Positions 1,388 to 9,972 of a stretch of DNA of 56,711 nucleotides are shown in pieces. The stretch covers positions 1-56,711 of the forward strand of contig JAGVXO010000009.1 in NCBI GenBank assembly GCA_018303755.1, written 5' to 3'. Numbering within the stretch: the stretch's first letter is position 1; the number at the start of each line of letters is the position of its first letter. The notes under the pieces were generated by a model that saw nothing but the letters and a program-made list of their open reading frames with translations, was not told the DNA's origin and searched no databases. This stretch comes from Candidatus Pacearchaeota archaeon (GTDB lineage: Archaea; Nanobdellota; Nanobdellia; Pacearchaeales; GW2011-AR1). A program made the translations under genes and the position numbers.

Positions 1388-1665
1388 ATGAAAAGATATT
1401 AAATATTTTAATTATTAAAGATTAAAAGAATAAACCTTCAATGAAAAGATATTAAATAATGGAAAAGAATGGTTGGTTGTTAGCAAAATAAACTCGCTCG
1501 CCATTCGGGCTCGCCTTATTTTGGTTCGCTCTGCTCACTTATCTAATTCTGCAAATCTCTAATTCATTTATACTTTGGTTCTTCAGATGATTTTAATTAA
1601 AAGAATAAAACTTCAATTAAAAGATGTTAAATAAGGAAAAGTTATGGGGTGTTAGAAAAATAGTT
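1388..1665 (-). repeat. Modular intergenic repeat family, two partial units
   Basis: Contains ctcgctcgcc..gggctcgcc, cacttatctaattctgcaaat and aaataaggaaaagttatggggtgttagaaaaa, also seen at 30650-30942; boundaries approximate. Confidence 0.75.
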
Positions 1666-1700
1666 CCTTATATTAAATTAAAATTAACTTATGAAGAAGA

Positions 1701-2093
1701 TTAATACATCTCGGTTCTTCTTGACTCATCCATTGCAGGCACTGGATTTTCTGGTATTGTTATCTCTGCAAATGAAGGTGTTGCAATTATAATATTTTCT
1801 CCAAAGCCAGTTATATTGCCCTCAAGCGCCTCTGTAGTTTTCTTTATTTTTGAAACAGCTCTTTTAAGCTCGATTATGTCTTTTTTTCTCAATGCCTGTA
1901 TATCTATAATAGCTATAGTATATCCCTCTCTTAGCGCATTAAGTATCTCATTTACATCTTCAAATTTTCTTAGAACAAAAGGCCTTACGCCGACTTTCAT
2001 CCTTTTTTCTTCTTGTCCAACATCAACTTCAAAATAGTCGCTTCCTTCAGAAGAATTTCCTCCCACCAATTTTTTTAATTTATCGAACACCAT
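1701..2093 (-). CDS. sepF: Cell division protein SepF
   Basis: Archaeal SepF pattern: ILNALREGYTIAIIDI, ELKRAVSKIK, GNITGFGENIIIATP. Confidence 0.85.
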   Translation of the reverse strand: MVFDKLKKLVGGNSSEGSDYFEVDVGQEEKRMKVGVRPFVLRKFEDVNEILNALREGYTIAIIDIQALRKKDIIELKRAVSKIKKTTEALEGNITGFGENIIIATPSFAEITIPENPVPAMDESRRTEMY

Positions 2094-2132
2094 ATTAAAT
2101 TTAAATTCGGCTGGTTTATAAAGATTTCTATA

Positions 2133-2462
2133 TTACTTTATTTTTTCCATTATTTCGCCCCTAATTCTTTCAATTTCCTCCCTTATTTCAAGCTCGTGCT
2201 TTTCAACTGTCTTTAATTTTATCCCAACGAGTTTAAGCCTTTCTTCAAGCTCTTTTTTAAGCGTTTCCTTGTCTGATTTTATCATTATCTGCCCTAAAAC
2301 GCGAAAAACCTCTCCCTTTGCCTTACCCAGCTCTTCAAGTGCGGTTTTTGATTCGCTTTCATCAATCTGAAGCGCCTGCTTTTGCATTGCAATTCCCTGA
2401 AAATTCTGTTCAAGAATCTGCAATTCCTGCATTTTCTCATTGGTTTCTTTGTCTATTTGCAT
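2133..2462 (-). CDS. pfdB: Prefoldin beta subunit
   Basis: Coiled coil with the VFRVLGQIMIK beta-hairpin; usual neighbour of rpo12 and rpl37ae. Confidence 0.9.
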   Translation of the reverse strand: MQIDKETNEKMQELQILEQNFQGIAMQKQALQIDESESKTALEELGKAKGEVFRVLGQIMIKSDKETLKKELEERLKLVGIKLKTVEKHELEIREEIERIRGEIMEKIK

Positions 2463-2467
2463 TTTGC

Positions 2468-2605
2468 TCAGTCAGTTTTTATTTTTGCTACAGCGCTTCT
2501 TGGCTTGTAGAATATTTTTGAATTGCAGAAAGGGCATGTAAATCTCTTGTCAAGTTTTTTCGATGAGATTTTTTTCCCACATTTGAAACATTTGTATTCT
2601 GCCAT
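2468..2605 (-). CDS. rpo12: RNA polymerase subunit P (Rpo12)
   Basis: Not in the ORF track; manual translation MAEYKCFKCGKKISSKKLDKRFTCPFCNSKIFYKPR... gives a zinc ribbon; lies between rpl37ae and pfdB. Confidence 0.9.
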   Translation of the reverse strand: MAEYKCFKCGKKISSKKLDKRFTCPFCNSKIFYKPRSAVAKIKTD

Positions 2606-2649
2606 ATTTTTATAAAATTGTTATTTATATTTAAAGGTTTGCTATTTAA

Positions 2650-2865
2650 TTATTCAAGATAGTAAGCTCCGCCTGCAAATGTTTTCCCGCATTTTTTGCA
2701 CTGCCATATTCCTGCATATTTTCTTTTTGCAGTAAGATTACTGCAGAAAGGGCATTTTTGTTTTTTTCTCTGCTTTGATTCAACAGCGACGAATTTTGCT
2801 CTTACATTAGTGCCATAGCCTGCTCCGAACTTTCCACTTGCTTTTACTTTTTTTGTTCGCACCAT
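2650..2865 (-). CDS. rpl37ae: 50S ribosomal protein L37ae
   Basis: GKFGAGYG, CPFC...GIWQCKKCGKTFAGGAY. Confidence 0.95.
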   Translation of the reverse strand: MVRTKKVKASGKFGAGYGTNVRAKFVAVESKQRKKQKCPFCSNLTAKRKYAGIWQCKKCGKTFAGGAYYLE

Positions 2866-3109
2866 TTGGTTTGTTGCTTTAAATTTTGTTTAATTCTGCT
2901 ATTGTATCAAAAAGATAGTTTTAAAATGTTTTGATATGGGGTTGCGCCCGAGCAATTGCACGAGCTAAAGGGGTTTATACAACGAGTGCAATCGCGAGTA
3001 GCAGGCGCGCTTGATAATTTAATTAATATCAAAAAAGAAAAAGGCAAATTGAAAAAATGTGAAATAAGGCAAAGCTATGGGATATTTAAAGAAGTGAATT
3101 AGTGCACTA

Positions 3110-3270
3110 TGTGCTTGTTTTATTCTGCAAAATTGTTAACCCTTGATACATTAGCTATTCTGCTTTTTAATTGATACTCTTTAAGATATGCTAAAGATTA
3201 AAATAAAAATAATAAAATTCCAATAAAAAAATATTGAATAAGGGAAAAGAATGGCGTGTTAGAAAAATTA
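3110..3270 (-). repeat. Modular intergenic repeat family copy
   Basis: cttgttttattctgcaaaattgttaa...aataagggaaaagaatggcgtgttagaaaaa. Confidence 0.7.
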
Positions 3271-3287
3271 AAAAGTATTTTCAACAT

Positions 3288-4004
3288 TTATTTCTTCTTC
3301 GCTATTTCTTTCTTCCCAGCTTCCTTTTTAGGCACTTCTTTCTTTGCTTCTTTCCCAGCTTCTTTTTTCGGCTCTTCTTTCTTTGCTTCTTCTGCTCCTG
3401 CTTCGGTTTTCTGTGTTTCTTTAGCTTCTTCCTGCGCTTTAATTGCCTGCGCAGCTGCCTGCTGTTTTAACTGAAGTGATTTGAAATAATCATCCAGTTC
3501 TTTCTTTTTCTCATCAGAAACTTCTGTTTTTTCTGAGATTATCTCTTTATCATATTTTCCTGCATCAATTTCTTTCTCCACTTCTGCAGGCGATTTGCTT
3601 TCAACAAGCACTCCTAAACTGACACAGCTTCCTACAATTGTTTTTACAGCACTTTTAAGAGTTTTTTCAAGCATTTCAGGCTTTTTTATTTTTGCAATTG
3701 AGATAATTCTTTCAATTGCAATATTCCCAGCGCAATTATTTTTATGGTCTCCGCTTCCTTTTTCTGCTCCAATTTCTTTTTTTATAAGTTCTGGTACAGG
3801 AGGAGATTTTACAGTAATTTTAAAATTTTTTGTTGAAGTATTAATATCAAGCTCAACAGGGACTTTTATTCCTTTGAATCCTTCTGTTGCTTTATTCACC
3901 TCAGAAATTACTTTTCCTATGTTTATTCCAAGCGGGCCGAGCTTTTGTGCAAGTGTCGGTCCAGGCACCATGCTTCCACCTTCAACAAGAAGTCCGACTA
4001 TCAT
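3288..4004 (-). CDS. rpl11: 50S ribosomal protein L11 with K/E/A-rich C-terminal extension
   Basis: PGPTLAQKLGPLGINIG, IVGSCVSLGV. Confidence 0.95.
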   Translation of the reverse strand: MIVGLLVEGGSMVPGPTLAQKLGPLGINIGKVISEVNKATEGFKGIKVPVELDINTSTKNFKITVKSPPVPELIKKEIGAEKGSGDHKNNCAGNIAIERIISIAKIKKPEMLEKTLKSAVKTIVGSCVSLGVLVESKSPAEVEKEIDAGKYDKEIISEKTEVSDEKKKELDDYFKSLQLKQQAAAQAIKAQEEAKETQKTEAGAEEAKKEEPKKEAGKEAKKEVPKKEAGKKEIAKKK

Positions 4005-4462
4005 TCCTCCACCTCTGTTTTATCAGTGCTTCTTCTTATCACCTTAACATTTTCAAGCTTGATTGTAACAGGTATTTGAACCACTGCTCCAAGCAAACTT
4101 ACAACAACTTCACCTTTCTGCATATCAACCCTTATCACTCTTGCCTTTTCTTTTTTAAAGGGATCTGATAATATTTCTACAATATCCTCTTTTTCTATAT
4201 TCATGACAGTTATATTCGGCTCAACCATATTTTTTACTTCATCATATTCTATTGTCTTGCCTATAATTCCTTTGACATATGGAAGTCCGAAACATGCCTC
4301 TTCTGCACTCTCTCTGTTTTCTGATTCAAGAATAATATAGCCCCTTAATCCAAGCGGTTTTGCAACAGAATAAACATTTAACTCTTTTTTAGGCATATGC
4401 TCTGCTATCATATCCATTACTTTTTCTTCTTTGTTTGTTGTTACTTTTATTACAAAAATCAT
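4001..4462 (-). CDS. spt5: Transcription elongation factor Spt5 (NusG family)
   Basis: NGN domain (VKVTTNKE, LRGYIILE) plus KOW (DIVEILSDPFKKEKARV); start moved to MIFVIKV. Confidence 0.92.
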   Translation of the reverse strand: MIFVIKVTTNKEEKVMDMIAEHMPKKELNVYSVAKPLGLRGYIILESENRESAEEACFGLPYVKGIIGKTIEYDEVKNMVEPNITVMNIEKEDIVEILSDPFKKEKARVIRVDMQKGEVVVSLLGAVVQIPVTIKLENVKVIRRSTDKTEVEE

Positions 4463-4984: not shown

Positions 4985-6172
4985 ATGGTTAAGAAATGGC
5001 TTTCAGAAGTGTTTAATCAAAAAATTATCTATTTAGATAATGGCGCAACCACAAGAGTTGATGAAGAAGTTGTAAAAGCAATGCTCCCTTATTTTTCAAA
5101 AGAATACGGTAATGCTTCTTCTACACATGCCCTTGGCAGAGAAGCAAAAAATGCGCTTGAGAACTCAAGAAAAATTATTGCAAATTCAATAAATGCCAGC
5201 AGAGAAGAAATATTCTTTACATCAGGTGGCACAGAATCAAATAATCTTGCAATAAAAGGAATTGCATTTGCAAATAAACAAAGAGGAAACCATATTATTA
5301 CAACAAAAATTGAGCATAAATGCGTCCTCAATGCCTGCAAATGGCTTGAAGAAAATGGATTTAAAATAACTTATCTAAATGTAGACAGCAAGGGATTTAT
5401 AGATTTAAAAGAGCTTGAGAAATCAATAACTGAAAAAACAATTCTTATTTCAGTTATTCATGGTAATAATGAAATAGGCACAATACAGGATTTGGAATCA
5501 ATTGGAAAAATATGTGCAAGGCACGAAGTTTATTTTCATACAGATGCCTGCCAAAGTCATACGAAAACAGAGCTTGATGCAAAGAAATTCAATCTTTCTC
5601 TTGTTACACTTAATTCTCATAAAATTCACGGCCCAAAAGGTGTTGGTGCATTATACATAAGAAAAGGAGTTAATATTCTTCCTTGGCAGCACGGAGGAGG
5701 GCAGGAATCAGGAATTCGTTCAGGAACAGAAAATGTTGCAGGAATTGTCGGATTTGCAAAAGCAGTTCAGCTTGCAAATGATAAAAAACATAGAAAGCAT
5801 ATGGAAAAACTAAGGGACAAGCTTATTGAAAACATTTTAAAAATTTCAGGAGTAAAATTAAATGGAGCATCAGGAAACAGGAGATTATGCAACAATGCGA
5901 ATTTTTCATTTAAAGGAGTTGAAGGAGAGGCAATAGGAGGCTATTTAGACCAAAAAGGAATTTGCAGTTCAACAGGAAGCGCATGTTCTGAAAGAAACCT
6001 TGCTCCAAGTTATGTTTTGACAGCAATAGGGCTTACTCATCAGGAAGCGAATGGCAGTTTAAGATTGACTTTAAGCAGATTCACAACAGATGAAGAAATT
6101 GAATATGCACTTAAAGTGCTTCCGGGGATAATTTCAAAATTACGCCTTATATCGCCATTCGGAGCTGTTTAA
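4985..6172 (+). CDS. iscS: Cysteine desulfurase IscS/NifS
   Basis: YLDNGATT, FTSGGTESNN, PLP lysine in SHKIHGPKG, catalytic STGSAC. Confidence 0.96.
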   Translation: MVKKWLSEVFNQKIIYLDNGATTRVDEEVVKAMLPYFSKEYGNASSTHALGREAKNALENSRKIIANSINASREEIFFTSGGTESNNLAIKGIAFANKQRGNHIITTKIEHKCVLNACKWLEENGFKITYLNVDSKGFIDLKELEKSITEKTILISVIHGNNEIGTIQDLESIGKICARHEVYFHTDACQSHTKTELDAKKFNLSLVTLNSHKIHGPKGVGALYIRKGVNILPWQHGGGQESGIRSGTENVAGIVGFAKAVQLANDKKHRKHMEKLRDKLIENILKISGVKLNGASGNRRLCNNANFSFKGVEGEAIGGYLDQKGICSSTGSACSERNLAPSYVLTAIGLTHQEANGSLRLTLSRFTTDEEIEYALKVLPGIISKLRLISPFGAV

Positions 6173-6202: not shown

Positions 6203-7654
6203 ATGTACAATAAAAAAACTTTTCAGATATTCAATAACCCTAAATTTTCAGGAGAAATAAAAAACGCAGATGCAGTTGGGCAGGTGGGAAATATGCGCTG
6301 TGGAGACGTTATGAAGATATTTTTGAAAGTTGATAAAAAAACAAAAAAGATTAAAGATATAAAATTTCAAACCTATGGGTGTTTACCCCCACAAGAAAAA
6401 GTGAATCTAAGGGGAAAATGGAAAGAAATATCTAATTTATCTGAATCAGAAAATGTTCTCAATGGCAATGGAAATGAAACCACAATAAAAAAGATATTCA
6501 AAAGAGATTATCATGGAGATTTATTAAAATTTATCCCTTTTGTTTCTCCGTATAATGCTTTTTATGTAACACCAGAACATCCTATTTTATGTATAAAAAG
6601 AAAACGTATTAAAAAAACAAAGAAAGCATACTCAAAAAGTGCTTGGCTTATGGTCAACCATGATGAATTAATGTCTACTAAACCTGATTATACAGAAGCA
6701 GGAAATTTAGAAACTGGAGATTATTTAGTATTTTCATATAATAAAAAAGTTATAAACAAAAAAGAATATACCAACTCGTTTTTAAGGCTAATAGGCTATT
6801 ACTTATCAGAGGGCTACGTAAGTGCTAAGGGTGGTGCAATTGGTTTTGCGTTTAATAAAAAAGAAAAAGAATATATTGAAGAGGTTAAAAAGTTAATTGA
6901 AGATGTTGTATTAAAAGAAGCTAAATCAAGAGTAAGAGCCAATGTTGAAGAAGTCTATGTTAATTCACGTGAGTTTGTCAGAAAAATATTAAAAGAGGCA
7001 GGGAAACTGGCTACAAAAAAAAGATTATCAAAGGAAATTATGTTACTCCCCCCAAAAAGACAATTAGAGATTATTGAAACTTATTTAAATGGAGATGGAG
7101 ATCTTTATTTTAGAAGAAAAGGCAACACGGCAACGTATCGCCTTGCTACTTCATCAGAAAGCTTAGCAATACAACTTCAAGAGATTTTAGCAAGAAATAA
7201 AATTTTTGCCTCAATTCGTAAACGAATACAAAAAGAGAGTAATATTGGTGGTAGAATTATTAGGGGAGGTCAAGAGTTGTTTATCGTCTCATACAAAAAA
7301 GATAGAAAGCATAAATTTGTACACCCAACAAGAAACTATTTTTTAGTTCCAATTAAAAAAATAGAAAAAGAAAAATATGGAGGAAAGGTTTATAATTTTG
7401 AGGTTTCATCTGAACCCAATTCTTATCTTGTTAGAGGATTCGTTGTGCATAATTGCATCGCCGCGATAACAGCATCTGAGATTATGTGCAAGCTCGCAAA
7501 AGGAAAAACTTTAGAGCAGGCAATGAAAATAAACCCAGAAGATATTGTTAAAAAGTTGGGTGAAGTGCCTGAAATTAAATTTCATTGTTCAATACTCGGC
7601 ACGCAGGCATTAAGAAAGGCGATTGAGAATTATAAAGAGAAAGTGAAAGATTAA
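6203..7654 (+). CDS. iscU: Fe-S scaffold IscU/NifU-N (125 aa after splicing) interrupted by an intein
   Basis: Exteins GNMRCGDVMKIFLKV...KFQTYG and CIAAITASE...KFHCSILG supply the three IscU cysteines; directly follows iscS. Confidence 0.92.
   Translation: MYNKKTFQIFNNPKFSGEIKNADAVGQVGNMRCGDVMKIFLKVDKKTKKIKDIKFQTYGCLPPQEKVNLRGKWKEISNLSESENVLNGNGNETTIKKIFKRDYHGDLLKFIPFVSPYNAFYVTPEHPILCIKRKRIKKTKKAYSKSAWLMVNHDELMSTKPDYTEAGNLETGDYLVFSYNKKVINKKEYTNSFLRLIGYYLSEGYVSAKGGAIGFAFNKKEKEYIEEVKKLIEDVVLKEAKSRVRANVEEVYVNSREFVRKILKEAGKLATKKRLSKEIMLLPPKRQLEIIETYLNGDGDLYFRRKGNTATYRLATSSESLAIQLQEILARNKIFASIRKRIQKESNIGGRIIRGGQELFIVSYKKDRKHKFVHPTRNYFLVPIKKIEKEKYGGKVYNFEVSSEPNSYLVRGFVVHNCIAAITASEIMCKLAKGKTLEQAMKINPEDIVKKLGEVPEIKFHCSILGTQALRKAIENYKEKVKD
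6380..7453 (+). mobile_element. Intein (358 aa) with LAGLIDADG homing endonuclease
   Basis: Block A CLPPQEKV, block B VTPEHPI, LAGLIDADG blocks LIGYYLSEG and IETYLNGDG, block F VYNFEV, block G VVHN followed by +1 Cys. Confidence 0.93.
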
Positions 7655-7659
7655 GTAAA

Positions 7660-7820
7660 TAATTGGCTCGCTCCGCTCGCTTATCTATTTTTTTAAATCC
7701 CTAATCCACTTGGCATTTTGATTTTTATGCTTTTAATTGGTATTAAGAATAAACTAAAAAGGGAAATAAAAAGTTATTGAATAAGGGAAAAGTTATTGAA
7801 TAAGGGAAAAGTTATTGAAA
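7660..7820 (-). repeat. Modular intergenic repeat copy with an internal 19-bp tandem (about 2.7 units)
   Basis: ttggctcgctccgctcgcttatctatt...aaatccctaatcc; unit aaaagttattgaataaggg repeated over 7769-7819. Confidence 0.7.
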
Positions 7821-7867
7821 GATATTAATAAAAAAGAAGAAAAAGAAAAGAATTATTGGGCTAAAAC

Positions 7868-8035
7868 TTAGTCCTGTATTCTTATTTGTTCTGCCATCCA
7901 TGCAAACATTAAAGCAATTCCGCCTAATGTTGCTGTTGTTCCTAGCCCTAAATTGTTATACCAAGAAACAAAGCAAAAAATGGCCCAAATTATTGCCCAA
8001 AAATAAGAATTGTAAATAAATGTCTTTTTTTTCAT
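7868..8035 (-). CDS. Small membrane protein (55 aa)
   Basis: Manual translation MKKKTFIYNSYFWAIIWAIFCFVSWYNNLGLGTTATLGGIALMFAWMAEQIRIQD; starts 3 bp after the stop of the upstream gene. Confidence 0.55.
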   Translation of the reverse strand: MKKKTFIYNSYFWAIIWAIFCFVSWYNNLGLGTTATLGGIALMFAWMAEQIRIQD

Positions 8036-8038
8036 TTT

Positions 8039-9972
8039 TTAACCTCCTGAATTTATTTTATTTTGATTTTCTTCTTCATTAAAATCCCAATTCATAACAA
8101 GAGAATAAACTTTATTCATATACTTTTTTTGTAAGTTATCTACAGTATTTCTATAAAGGGCCATATGGACTATAATACTATCTCCGAAAGGAGTTTCTTT
8201 TCCCTTCTTTATTCTTTCTTCTGCGATTCTTTTAAAGAATGCTTCACAGACAATCTCACATAAAAGCATCTTTCCAGTTTCAGTCTCCACATTCTCCAAA
8301 GATTCACCTAAATATCTTGCTACACCCGGAAATTGAATAAATATCTCAATCTTTCCAGTTTTCTGATTATGATATGCTCTTTGCATAGGGTTTGGGTCTG
8401 AATTTGGATTAAATCCAGTGATGCCACCTTTTTTTTGTGGCTGGGGGTTCTTTCCTATATGTCCCATTTCTTTAACACGAACATCACAAAAAACTAAACT
8501 TTTGCCAATTCTTGCTTCAATTATATCTTCATCACCTAAATTTAATCCCTCTACTTTGAATTTAGCCCAAAACATACTAGAATATTTGGGGTGTTTTTCT
8601 AAATAAATTTTTGGATCAATGATATAAATCTTATTTTTCTGAGAGGTTATAATTGCTTGTTCTCCTTCAGATTTAATAATATTCTCATTTGCATATAAAC
8701 ATAAAGTTCTTGGTTTTCTTGGTGGAAGATTTGGAGATTTTGGTCTAATAAAAGCATCTTCTTCAAAAATATCTTCGACATTTATATCTATATCTCCCTC
8801 TTCTAATTCTTCTTCATAAATCTGATTAAATAATTTAGATAACTCCTTGAGAAGTTTTTTACTATTCTCATTTACTTCTATATGCTTGTTTTTTGCTAAC
8901 TCCTTCTTTTTTTCCTCAATAAGAGGTTCTAATTCTCTTTCTATAGACTTCATTAGAATTTGAGCATATCTATGCCCCCATTCAATTCCTGAACGACTAG
9001 GATTTAAAATAGAAGTTTCTCCCGAACGCAAGATTTTATCAATTTCTTCCGAAATTAATTCTCCATAAAAATAATAAGAAGCGGGGTCATTCTCAAATTT
9101 AAAAAGCTGGTTATCTAAAATGGCACCTGGCGTTTTTATTAAAATTCCAGTAAGATTAAAAGGAGAATATTTTTTATATTGTGGTAAAGTTTCTTTAGTT
9201 TCATAAACTCTTAAAATGGCAGAATTATTAAAACCTGGAACTTTCAGGGGTTTGTTTAAAACTTCTTCCCCCTTTAATGATTCAAAAGATATTTCTTCTT
9301 GATGTTTACTTGACCTTTTCATATCACAAAATTGAAGAAGAACTTTTCTTTTTTTAGAAGATAAAATGTCCCTTAAACAGATATGATTTTTTAATTGAGT
9401 TCTTAAAGTTTCTAATTCTGGAATTTTTATTTCTTCGTTTGTAATAGATACCTTAACGAATGTCCCATCTTTCTTAATCCCATATTCTTCTCTTATTGTT
9501 TCATTAACTTTCTCATCTTCAACAATAAAATCTCTAAAAACCTTTTTTTTATCTTTGTCAAACCATATTTTTATTCTATTCAGTTTATTATCCTTAATTG
9601 TAATTATCTCGCCAATTCCCAAGGCAATAATAGTCTCTTTTAACCCCCTTCCAAAATATCCCCTAACATTTTTATTCTTTTTATATTCACTTGCATCTGC
9701 AAAAAAAGTTGTTGCGAGCTCTATTTTTTGTCTATCCATCCCTCCCGCTTCATCATAAACTTCTAAAGATGTCCATTCTCCGCCTTTTTTCTAGAAACAG
9801 AAACTTTGATATTACCAGAACAAACTTTTTTAGAATTTTCTAATATCTTGTAAGCATCATCGCAATTAGTAACTAATTCTACAACCGGCTCAATCCAACT
9901 TTTAACAGTTGAACGAGCAAGAATTGCAATAGCCCTACTCTTATCCATGGGCATTTCTTCAGCTTTGCTCAT
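8039..9972 (-). pseudogene. GHKL (HSP90/MutL/MORC-like) ATPase, split by a -1 frameshift near 9785-9790
   Basis: ORF 9763-9972 has the N-box ELVTNCDDAY; the -1 frame continues GGEWTSLEVYDEAGGM (DxxxG box) into ORF 8039-9739, which has GYFGRGLK. Confidence 0.75.

Follow-up and report, generated by a model that had tools for sequence, protein, structure and literature searches.

A probable class 1 intein with a LAGLIDADG endonuclease at the second ligand cysteine of the iron-sulfur scaffold IscU in a Candidatus Pacearchaeota archaeon

The interrupted iscU gene

The window analysed here is a whole stretch of 56,711 nucleotides (nt), positions 1 to 56,711 of contig JAGVXO010000009.1 (assembly GCA_018303755.1), from Candidatus Pacearchaeota archaeon. 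It contains an open reading frame (ORF) in which iscU, the gene for the iron-sulfur (Fe-S) cluster scaffold IscU, is interrupted by what is very probably an intein that includes a LAGLIDADG homing endonuclease. The parts of this ORF, all on the forward (+) strand of the window, are listed below. Throughout, G000 denotes this genome, other G numbers are comparison genomes, P numbers are protein matches and L numbers are genome loci.

6203..7654, +, IscU precursor ORF, 483 aa and a stop codon (defined from the ORF, its translation, Pfam, NCBIfam and a profile search of the genome)
6203..6379, +, N-extein, aa 1-59, NifU_N profile positions 1-61, ending KFQTYG
6299..6307, +, Cys33-Gly-Asp35, the first ligand Cys and the conserved Asp of IscU, invariant in the alignment
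6380..7453, +, intein, 358 aa (aa 60-417), CLPP...VVHN, a Hint domain split by a LAGLIDADG endonuclease domain
6380..6409, +, block A, CLPPQEKVNL, in which Cys1 is aa 60
6569..6583, +, block B, TPEHP, with Thr123 and His126 (TPEH is aa 123-126)
6782..6817, +, LAGLIDADG motif 1, LRLIGYYLSEGY, aa 194-205, with putative catalytic Glu203 (LAGLIDADG_3 match at 6782-6997)
7070..7102, +, LAGLIDADG motif 2, IIETYLNGDGD, aa 290-300, with putative catalytic Asp298 (LAGLIDADG_3 match at 7064-7243)
7385..7453, +, blocks F and G, KVYNFEVSSEPNSYLVRGFVVHN, with Asn398 and ending in His416-Asn417 (intein_Cterm match at 7385-7456)
7454..7651, +, C-extein, aa 418-483 (66 aa, starting CIAAITAS), in which codon 7454-7456 is Cys+1
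7583..7591, +, His461-Cys462-Ser, the third ligand Cys and the His preceding it

In Pfam, two separate stretches of the precursor match NifU_N (E 2.4e-35) and two match LAGLIDADG_3 (E 1.9e-10), and the NifU/IscU models of NCBIfam match the precursor in split form. The profile search of the genome places NifU_N positions 1-61 at 6203-6382 and positions 59-125 at 7448-7648. The NCBIfam model intein_Cterm scores above its cut-off at aa 395-418 (23.1 vs 15.6 bits), and the C-terminal signature of class 1 inteins is present (His416-Asn417-Cys418). Each LAGLIDADG motif closes with an acidic residue followed by Gly (Glu203-Gly and Asp298-Gly). An initial annotation of this DNA, made from the sequence alone, had described a 59-aa N-extein, a 358-aa intein and a 66-aa C-extein, and these figures match the translation exactly; the TPEHP block and the two LAGLIDADG blocks that it named were located in the precursor, and Pfam, NCBIfam, the alignment and Foldseek agree with it on both the host, the Fe-S scaffold IscU, and the kind of element, a homing endonuclease intein.

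The ligand set of IscU is complete across the two exteins, namely Cys33-Gly-Asp35, Gly59|Cys418 and His461-Cys462. The best sequence match of the exteins in the PDB is the IscU of Archaeoglobus fulgidus (4eb5_C, E 1e-25), in which Cys33 carries the same number as in the query. Cys418, the +1 residue, aligns with Cys58 of 4eb5_C and with residue 63 of Escherichia coli IscU (2l4x_A), the second cluster ligand. Hence, the intein lies directly before the second ligand Cys, and the PDB-sequence alignment bears out the earlier assignment of the +1 Cys to this ligand, at a junction formed by Cys1 and Cys+1. When joined, the exteins align from end to end with A. fulgidus IscU, for which structures of the IscS-IscU complex are available (4eb5 and 4eb7) and which differs in having no intein.

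Conservation was examined in an alignment of 118 rows, comprising 114 of the 120 protein matches listed, three IscU representatives and the query. P0002, which is 99 % identical to the query, and five two-intein proteins of 624-650 aa were left out. The relatives are 33-70 % identical overall, and the same junctions are found in 118/118, which is far beyond chance. Cys1 is Cys in 117 rows and Ser in one, and the block B Thr and His, the C-terminal His-Asn and Cys+1 are each present in all 118. The motif 1 acid (Glu203, E or D) and Asp298 of motif 2 are both retained in 117/118, and Lys273 in 118/118. In the exteins, Cys33, Gly34 and Asp35 are invariant, as are His461 and Cys462 (118/118 for each of Cys33, His461 and Cys462). 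Compared with the query, the extein, the Hint domain and the endonuclease have median identities of 0.48, 0.52 and 0.49, respectively, so that the whole intein, with its endonuclease, changes at about the slow rate of an essential scaffold.

From this alignment, AlphaFold2 gave a model with a mean predicted local distance difference test score (pLDDT) of 91.4 and a predicted template modelling (TM) score (pTM) of 0.83. Its best PDB matches in Foldseek are the intein-homing endonucleases TliVMA (7qsu, E 7e-19), PI-SceI, PI-PkoII and PI-PfuI. The likeness to these four (E 7e-19 to 6e-12, query-normalised TM 0.45-0.51) consists of the Hint domain and a double-motif LAGLIDADG domain, and PI-PkoII was also matched by sequence (E 4e-6). 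However, they are only 10-15 % identical to the query and their hosts are V-ATPase or DNA polymerase, none of them an Fe-S protein. The middle domain resembles the free-standing LAGLIDADG enzymes I-Tsp061I, I-SceI and I-DmoI (E 1e-6 to 1e-4, about 190 columns). The exteins of the model match IscU chains in Foldseek, with stretches of 60-70 columns superposing on other IscU chains at 2.0-4.6 Å. The two halves do not form one IscU unit (root-mean-square deviation 15.3 Å over 110 columns vs 4eb5_C), and Cys33, Cys60, Cys418 and Cys462 are all present in a model whose exteins are not natively assembled. The predicted fold of the precursor fits a protein that would be unable to act as a scaffold.

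Two other classifications were considered. A bacterial intein-like (BIL) domain was rejected because of the combination of His-Asn with Cys+1 and the endonuclease, and a pseudogene was rejected on the basis of the open frame and the conserved catalytic residues.

Related inteins, their distribution and the history of the host gene

The 358-aa intein alone was searched against 1.84 billion representatives, which gave 4132 matches at E <= 1e-3 and 46 at <= 1e-30. The best full-length matches outside IscU are inteins in SufB, with 31-41 % identity over 358 aa, and inteins in the beta subunit of 2-oxoacid:ferredoxin oxidoreductase (OFOR-beta) are 39-43 % identical. Pfam identified SufB in 11 and OFOR-beta in 5 of 24 locus ORFs, and the remaining hosts were assigned by C-extein motif (CTAP or CSAP, CGSK). 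The members of this group, which we refer to as the clan, are 354-364 aa long, start with CLPxxE and end with GF(A/V)VHN. Their junctions are all Gly|Cys, namely TFG|C(G/V/A)AAIATS in IscU, HY(I/V)EG|CTAPIYS in SufB and SGIG|CGSKTPHF in OFOR-beta. In a quick tree made with IQ-TREE from 76 inteins, two of them outgroups, each host has one clade: IscU (35 rows, SH-like approximate likelihood ratio test (SH-aLRT) support 96), SufB (33 rows, 97) and OFOR-beta (6 rows, 100). Support for joining these host clades to the exclusion of the outgroups is 99, and the branching order among them is not resolved.

The +1 residue at the SufB site corresponds to Cys254 of E. coli SufB. The SufB matches have His at -5, an N-extein of 252 aa (P0125) and the block B His at intein position 66. 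For SufB of Mycobacterium tuberculosis, passages of PMC8891592 put the N-extein at 252 aa and the intein at 359 aa, with Cys1 and Cys+1, block B His67 and His at -5, and they report that the intein splices in vitro. Because the published 252-aa N-extein and His at -5 match the SufB sequences found here, the SufB clade is, on these figures, at the M. tuberculosis SufB site. The SufB (Pps1) intein of M. tuberculosis and its homologues share with the IscU intein the length class, Cys1 and Cys+1, a block B His at 66-68, the His-Asn end and an internal LAGLIDADG domain, and differ in the host fold (the SufB beta-helix vs IscU) and in forming a separate host clade. The mycobacterial SufB intein had been cited in the initial annotation as an analogy, and the relationship proves to be stronger than was claimed, SufB inteins being the nearest relatives in both the search and the tree.

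The OFOR-beta inteins are likewise similar (358 aa, CLPP...GFVVHN, SGIG|CGSK junction), although the host is a thiamine pyrophosphate enzyme and not a scaffold. Their +1 Cys aligns with Cys46 of the b-subunit of Sulfolobus tokodaii OFOR, a probable [4Fe-4S] ligand. The passages on S. tokodaii OFOR available from PMC5020499 name only a Cys12-Cys15 motif. PorB is a column heading among the intein hosts in Table S2 of PMC4760082. OFOR-beta inteins are found at L050, L053, L055, L060, L081 and L084, all archaeal contigs and several of them titled Aenigmatarchaeota, and at L060 and L084 a further intein lies upstream in the same OFOR-beta ORF. At L078 (Woesearchaeota-titled), an ORF at 1656-4121 (822 aa) includes an intein that is 30 % identical (...PAH|CLLP...TVHN|CWTP), and its host protein matches no Pfam family besides the intein domains.

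The initial annotation had proposed a search for IscU inteins at this site. Such inteins do occur elsewhere, the full precursor being matched by at least 257 protein clusters at E < 1e-5, so that this allele is one of many. All of the 120 matches listed contain NifU_N and LAGLIDADG_3, with identities of 46-99 %. When these 120 were scanned for simple patterns, 98 showed TxG|C and 111 showed HN|C. The 99 % identical protein, P0002, is present on three other contigs from two sources. IscU with this intein accounts for 38 of the best 80 of 336 loci. Archaeal record titles include Iainarchaeota, Nanoarchaeota, Woese-, Aenigmat- and Micrarchaeota, Thermoplasmatales, Methanobacteriota and Hadarchaeota, and bacterial titles include Omnitrophota, 'Planctomycetia', Aerophobetes, Nealsonbacteria, Gribaldobacteria and other Patescibacteria, as well as Saccharibacteria, Caldiserica, Armatimonadota and Clostridia. 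Among 34 complete IscU-intein loci, 12 are labelled Archaea and 21 Bacteria, and one (Nealsonbacteria) is bacterial by title.

Closer to the query, a NifU_N gene was found in 16 of the 20 other genomes of the same genus and is uninterrupted in all 16. In a sample of 400 genomes from the phylum, NifU_N was found in 337 and this intein in one (G276, 43 % identity over residues 19-480); G311 in this sample has a clan member in another host. The NifU_N tally for the phylum includes five genomes flagged as unpublished, and the tally from the precursor search presumably does too; no other result depends on these five. The allele is common in public data yet sporadic within any one lineage. Trees carrying Archaea and Bacteria labels were made for 29 IscU-intein rows, with five left out because of truncation, Ns or a second intein. 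The label changes at least three times on the intein tree and at least six times on the extein tree, which is built on 130 columns and is poorly resolved.

A short insert (...KVGK...G.E.IKD...) before K-T-F-G is common to intein-bearing IscU exteins labelled DPANN (L022, L023, L037, L045 and L051, all archaea) and those labelled candidate phyla radiation (CPR; L027, L039, L043 and L049, all Patescibacteria). Exteins of the Omnitrophota type are without it. The common insert is a hint that the DPANN- and CPR-labelled groups may have exchanged the entire gene.

IscU can also be interrupted at a second site. In G037 and G030, which belong to the same order, and in G195 from the phylum sample (same class), IscU is split at NifU_N profile positions 31-34, in ORFs of 512-535 aa, and in all three genomes this site is occupied by a LAGLIDADG intein of full size. 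The G037 junctions, VGNPV|CLLP...CLHN|CGD, enclose a full-size intein for which the +1 residue is the first ligand Cys. The loci are as follows.

L017 (G037:C6:176500-181000), ORF 1600-3204, second insertion site
G030:C25, about 7780-9300, second insertion site
G195:C24, second insertion site

Four sequences (P0080, P0098, P0113 and P0118) were inspected from the five two-intein forms of 624-650 aa, and in each a mini-intein of ~160 aa occupies the first-ligand site and a LAGLIDADG intein the second. Thus, it appears that the first and the second ligand Cys can each serve as the +1 nucleophile. At the second-ligand site, mini-inteins lacking the endonuclease were not seen among the matches listed (120 and 150), in which no search aimed at them was made.

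The gene that precedes iscU bears on how the intein came to be there.

4985..6172, +, iscS/nifS-type cysteine desulfurase ORF, 395 aa, matching Aminotran_5 and FeS_nifS/IscS, partner of the scaffold

This ORF ends 30 nt upstream of iscU and matches Aminotran_5 in Pfam (E 5e-85) and FeS_nifS (499.6 bits) and IscS (425.5 bits) in NCBIfam, both below the equivalog cut-offs. Adjacency to iscS is expected for an IscU-type system, and iscS is upstream in 10 of the 14 intein-bearing loci checked. Relative to intein-less genomes of the same genus, the G000 IscS and IscU exteins are 77 % and 71 % identical to those of G010 and 71 % and 64 % identical to those of G008; loci with the intein in other phyla give lower values, 45-59 % and 35-54 %. 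Since its closest counterparts are the intein-less ones of the genus, the iscS-iscU operon is native to the lineage, and it is the intein that was inserted. The simplest history suggested by these sequences is a single gain of the intein in this lineage. All six inspected intein-less alleles of the IscU type from the genus keep K-T-[YL]-G-C-x-A-A-I. Within the 30 nt around the site, a comparison of these alleles with the joined exteins of G000 shows 7-12 differences, mostly in third codon positions. The GC content of the intein is 30.0 %, vs 32.5 % for the genome.

We note that the type of scaffold varies within this one genus, as seen in ten inspected of the 16 genomes with a NifU_N gene. In the six inspected from the higher-scoring group (G002, G004, G005, G006, G008 and G010) an IscU-type gene lies beside an IscS homologue, which shares 56-77 % identity with the IscS of G000. 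Of the other ten genomes, the four inspected (G001, G003, G007 and G009, loci L106-L109) encode a SufU-like protein with G-x-G-C-A-I-S that is 24-29 % identical to the G000 exteins, and the match to IscS nearby is at most 21-27 %.

The G000 assembly has a total length of 769 kb, is divided into 36 contigs and is 81.6 % complete. Its size, the archaeal Spt5-NGN and L11 genes described below and its closest neighbours in the tree suggest a DPANN-like archaeon. It has one NifU_N gene, the interrupted one, and no match to SUFBD_core was found in the 81.6 % recovered. As far as the 82 %-complete genome shows, the interrupted iscU appears to be the sole Fe-S scaffold.

Proposed splicing and mobility, and the alternatives

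We consider it highly likely, from sequence and predicted fold, that the element is a splicing-competent class 1 intein with a LAGLIDADG homing endonuclease, located in a native iscU between Gly59 and the second ligand Cys. Following the class 1 scheme as set out in passages of PMC10663303 and PMC8891592, Cys60 would undergo an N-S acyl shift aided by Thr123 and His126, and the thioester would be handed to Cys418 by trans-thioesterification. Asn417, aided by His416, would then cyclise and release the intein, and an S-N shift would produce the Gly-Cys peptide bond of a 125-aa IscU with Cys33, Cys(+1) and Cys462. Scaffold function would be a property of the spliced product only and, because of this and because no other scaffold was found in the 82 %-complete genome, splicing is probably essential for the host. 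The free intein would cut intein-less iscU at the coding site ...K-T-(F/Y)-G|C-x-A-A-I... and be copied in by repair (homing). It would have been gained in this lineage, belongs to the same clan as the inteins at Gly|Cys in SufB and OFOR-beta, and would persist because mutation of the site would destroy the host protein. As it is sporadic, keeps its endonuclease and occupies a site that the host cannot change, the intein is best read as a selfish element.

Several points weigh against this interpretation. Splicing and DNA cleavage are activities that we infer from residues and fold. The Pfam model Intein_splicing scores 31.5 bits, below its cut-off of 35.8. Asn398 of block F, found in 117 of the 118 aligned rows, replaces the usual class 1 residue, which is Asp in most class 1 inteins according to passages of PMC10663303. 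However, the same Asn is found in the SufB and OFOR-beta clades and, as it is common to the whole clan, is evidently tolerated. Across 6903 pairs, extein identity (mean 0.58) and intein identity (mean 0.53) co-vary (r = 0.58) and the intein is more similar than the extein by >0.2 in only 1 of these 6903 pairs, so recent jumps of the intein alone have left no direct trace in the sampled sequences. Co-conversion of the short exteins (177 and 198 nt) or transfer of the whole gene could explain this co-variation. With the genome 81.6 % complete, a second scaffold is possible. The searches also set limits: the protein search was word-indexed with 8000 candidates scored, so that its counts are lower bounds; the genome loci are the best 80 of 336 clan relatives in GTDB representative genomes; at most three candidates per genome were scored in the search of the phylum sample for the precursor; and the taxonomic labels of metagenome-assembled genomes may be wrong for short contigs.

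An alternative raised in the initial annotation is that the intein has been co-opted as a switch, with splicing blocked by oxidation, by Zn or Fe or by IscS persulfide on Cys+1 and the scaffold released when conditions suit. This would involve a disulfide from Cys1 to Cys+1 or Cys33, or metal bound at the four clustered cysteines. The idea is chemically reasonable: the junction has Cys1 and Cys+1, in folded IscU the site also includes Cys33, Cys462, His461 and Asp35, and chemical sensitivity of a Cys1/Cys+1 junction beside further ligand cysteines is plausible. A title of Topilina et al. from 2015 describes the SufB intein of M. tuberculosis as a sensor of oxidative and nitrosative stress. As precedents, passages of PMC10663303 describe inhibition of several inteins by zinc and, for the MoaA intein of Pyrococcus abyssi, a trap formed by a disulfide that links Cys1 to a Cys of the N-extein. 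The MoaA intein also has an Fe-S-dependent host enzyme and could serve as a model for such a switch, with the difference that in IscU the candidate partner cysteines are cluster ligands. The nearest relatives are at cysteines that handle sulfur or clusters (SufB C254 and OFOR-beta Cys46), intein and extein are equally conserved and, IscU being apparently the sole scaffold, a delay in splicing would affect the whole Fe-S supply. Nevertheless, we regard a switch as unlikely. The sequence data neither support nor require it. The intein is absent from 16/16 genomes of the same genus that have a scaffold gene and from all but one of the 337 genomes with a scaffold in the phylum sample, and therefore no lineage depends on it. 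An endonuclease that is intact in 116-117 of 118 rows is a mark of mobility, not of domestication. Moreover, inteins with a +1 Cys land on conserved cysteines, which are often metal ligands, and therefore the recurrence of Fe-S hosts could be incidental. For such a distribution, a selfish element is a better explanation than a switch.

A broader version, which we consider somewhat more doubtful again, is that the clan is specialised for sulfur- or cluster-handling cysteines and that the thioester relay would be stalled by a persulfide passed from IscS to Cys+1 or Cys1, or by a metal or cluster held by Cys33, Cys1, Cys+1 and Cys462, coupling the supply of scaffold to sulfur, iron or redox status. 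If true, organisms with a sole scaffold would get a built-in feedback from the intein of this clan.

It is very unlikely that the insertion is a decaying intein that no longer splices, with IscU function lost or supplied in some other way. Block F without the usual Asp, the incomplete genome and a model in which the extein halves do not superpose as native IscU (15.3 Å) could be taken in its favour. However, the frame is open across 483 codons, all of the catalytic residues and the three ligand cysteines are kept in the 118 relatives, and the block F Asn is common to the SufB clade, at the M. tuberculosis SufB site where in vitro splicing is reported (passages of PMC8891592). A split fold before splicing is what would be expected in a precursor. 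A chimeric contig, in which assembly or binning had joined a foreign intein to IscU fragments in a 36-contig draft genome, is barely conceivable, as the junctions are exact and in frame, the same architecture occurs in at least 257 clusters, including on contigs of 271, 322 and 598 kb, P0002 is found on three other contigs and the GC content of the intein agrees with that of the genome.

In the literature searched, no paper was found that describes inteins in IscU, NifU or SufU, in agreement with the initial annotation, which knew of no characterised IscU intein. NifU and IscU are not in the main text or Table S2 of the 2016 intein census (PMC4760082). The kind of element is thoroughly known, whereas IscU as a host and both of the sites in it appear to be undescribed. 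IscU thus joins the intein hosts with two sites, each providing a cluster-ligand Cys as the +1 nucleophile, although the first-ligand site was found in genomes other than G000. Its intein at the second ligand shares descent with the SufB intein that is known from work on mycobacteria. With a 125-aa extein, IscS as partner and solved structures, it is a tractable case in which to study how the active-site chemistry of a host might feed back on splicing. In genome-reduced archaea and bacteria with no other apparent scaffold, Fe-S maturation would hinge on the splicing of a selfish element. In public records these proteins of ~480 aa are named plainly as 'iron-sulfur cluster assembly scaffold protein', and the NCBIfam search of the precursor returned no intein-aware IscU model.

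Other inteins of the genome and neighbouring genes

Intein C-terminal blocks were found in five ORFs of G000, iscU among them. The genome has five more inteins, in GyrB (a mini-intein), aEF-2, RadA (two) and a DEAD/Hef-like helicase. The other intein ORFs are at C29:1457-3820 (-), C30:2765-6409 (+), C9:58119-62126 (+) and C9:16911-20075 (-). IscU is the only metabolic host among the intein hosts of G000.

Just downstream of iscU, a 566-aa ORF at 8039-9739 of the window (-) matches no Pfam family at E <= 0.01. Farther upstream, on the opposite strand, are archaeal Spt5-NGN and L11 genes. The ribosomal protein L11 ORF (window 3288-4004, -, 238 aa) has two L11 domains that end at aa 134 in Pfam, and past aa 134 it continues in a C-terminal tail of ~100 aa that is rich in Lys, Glu and Ala.

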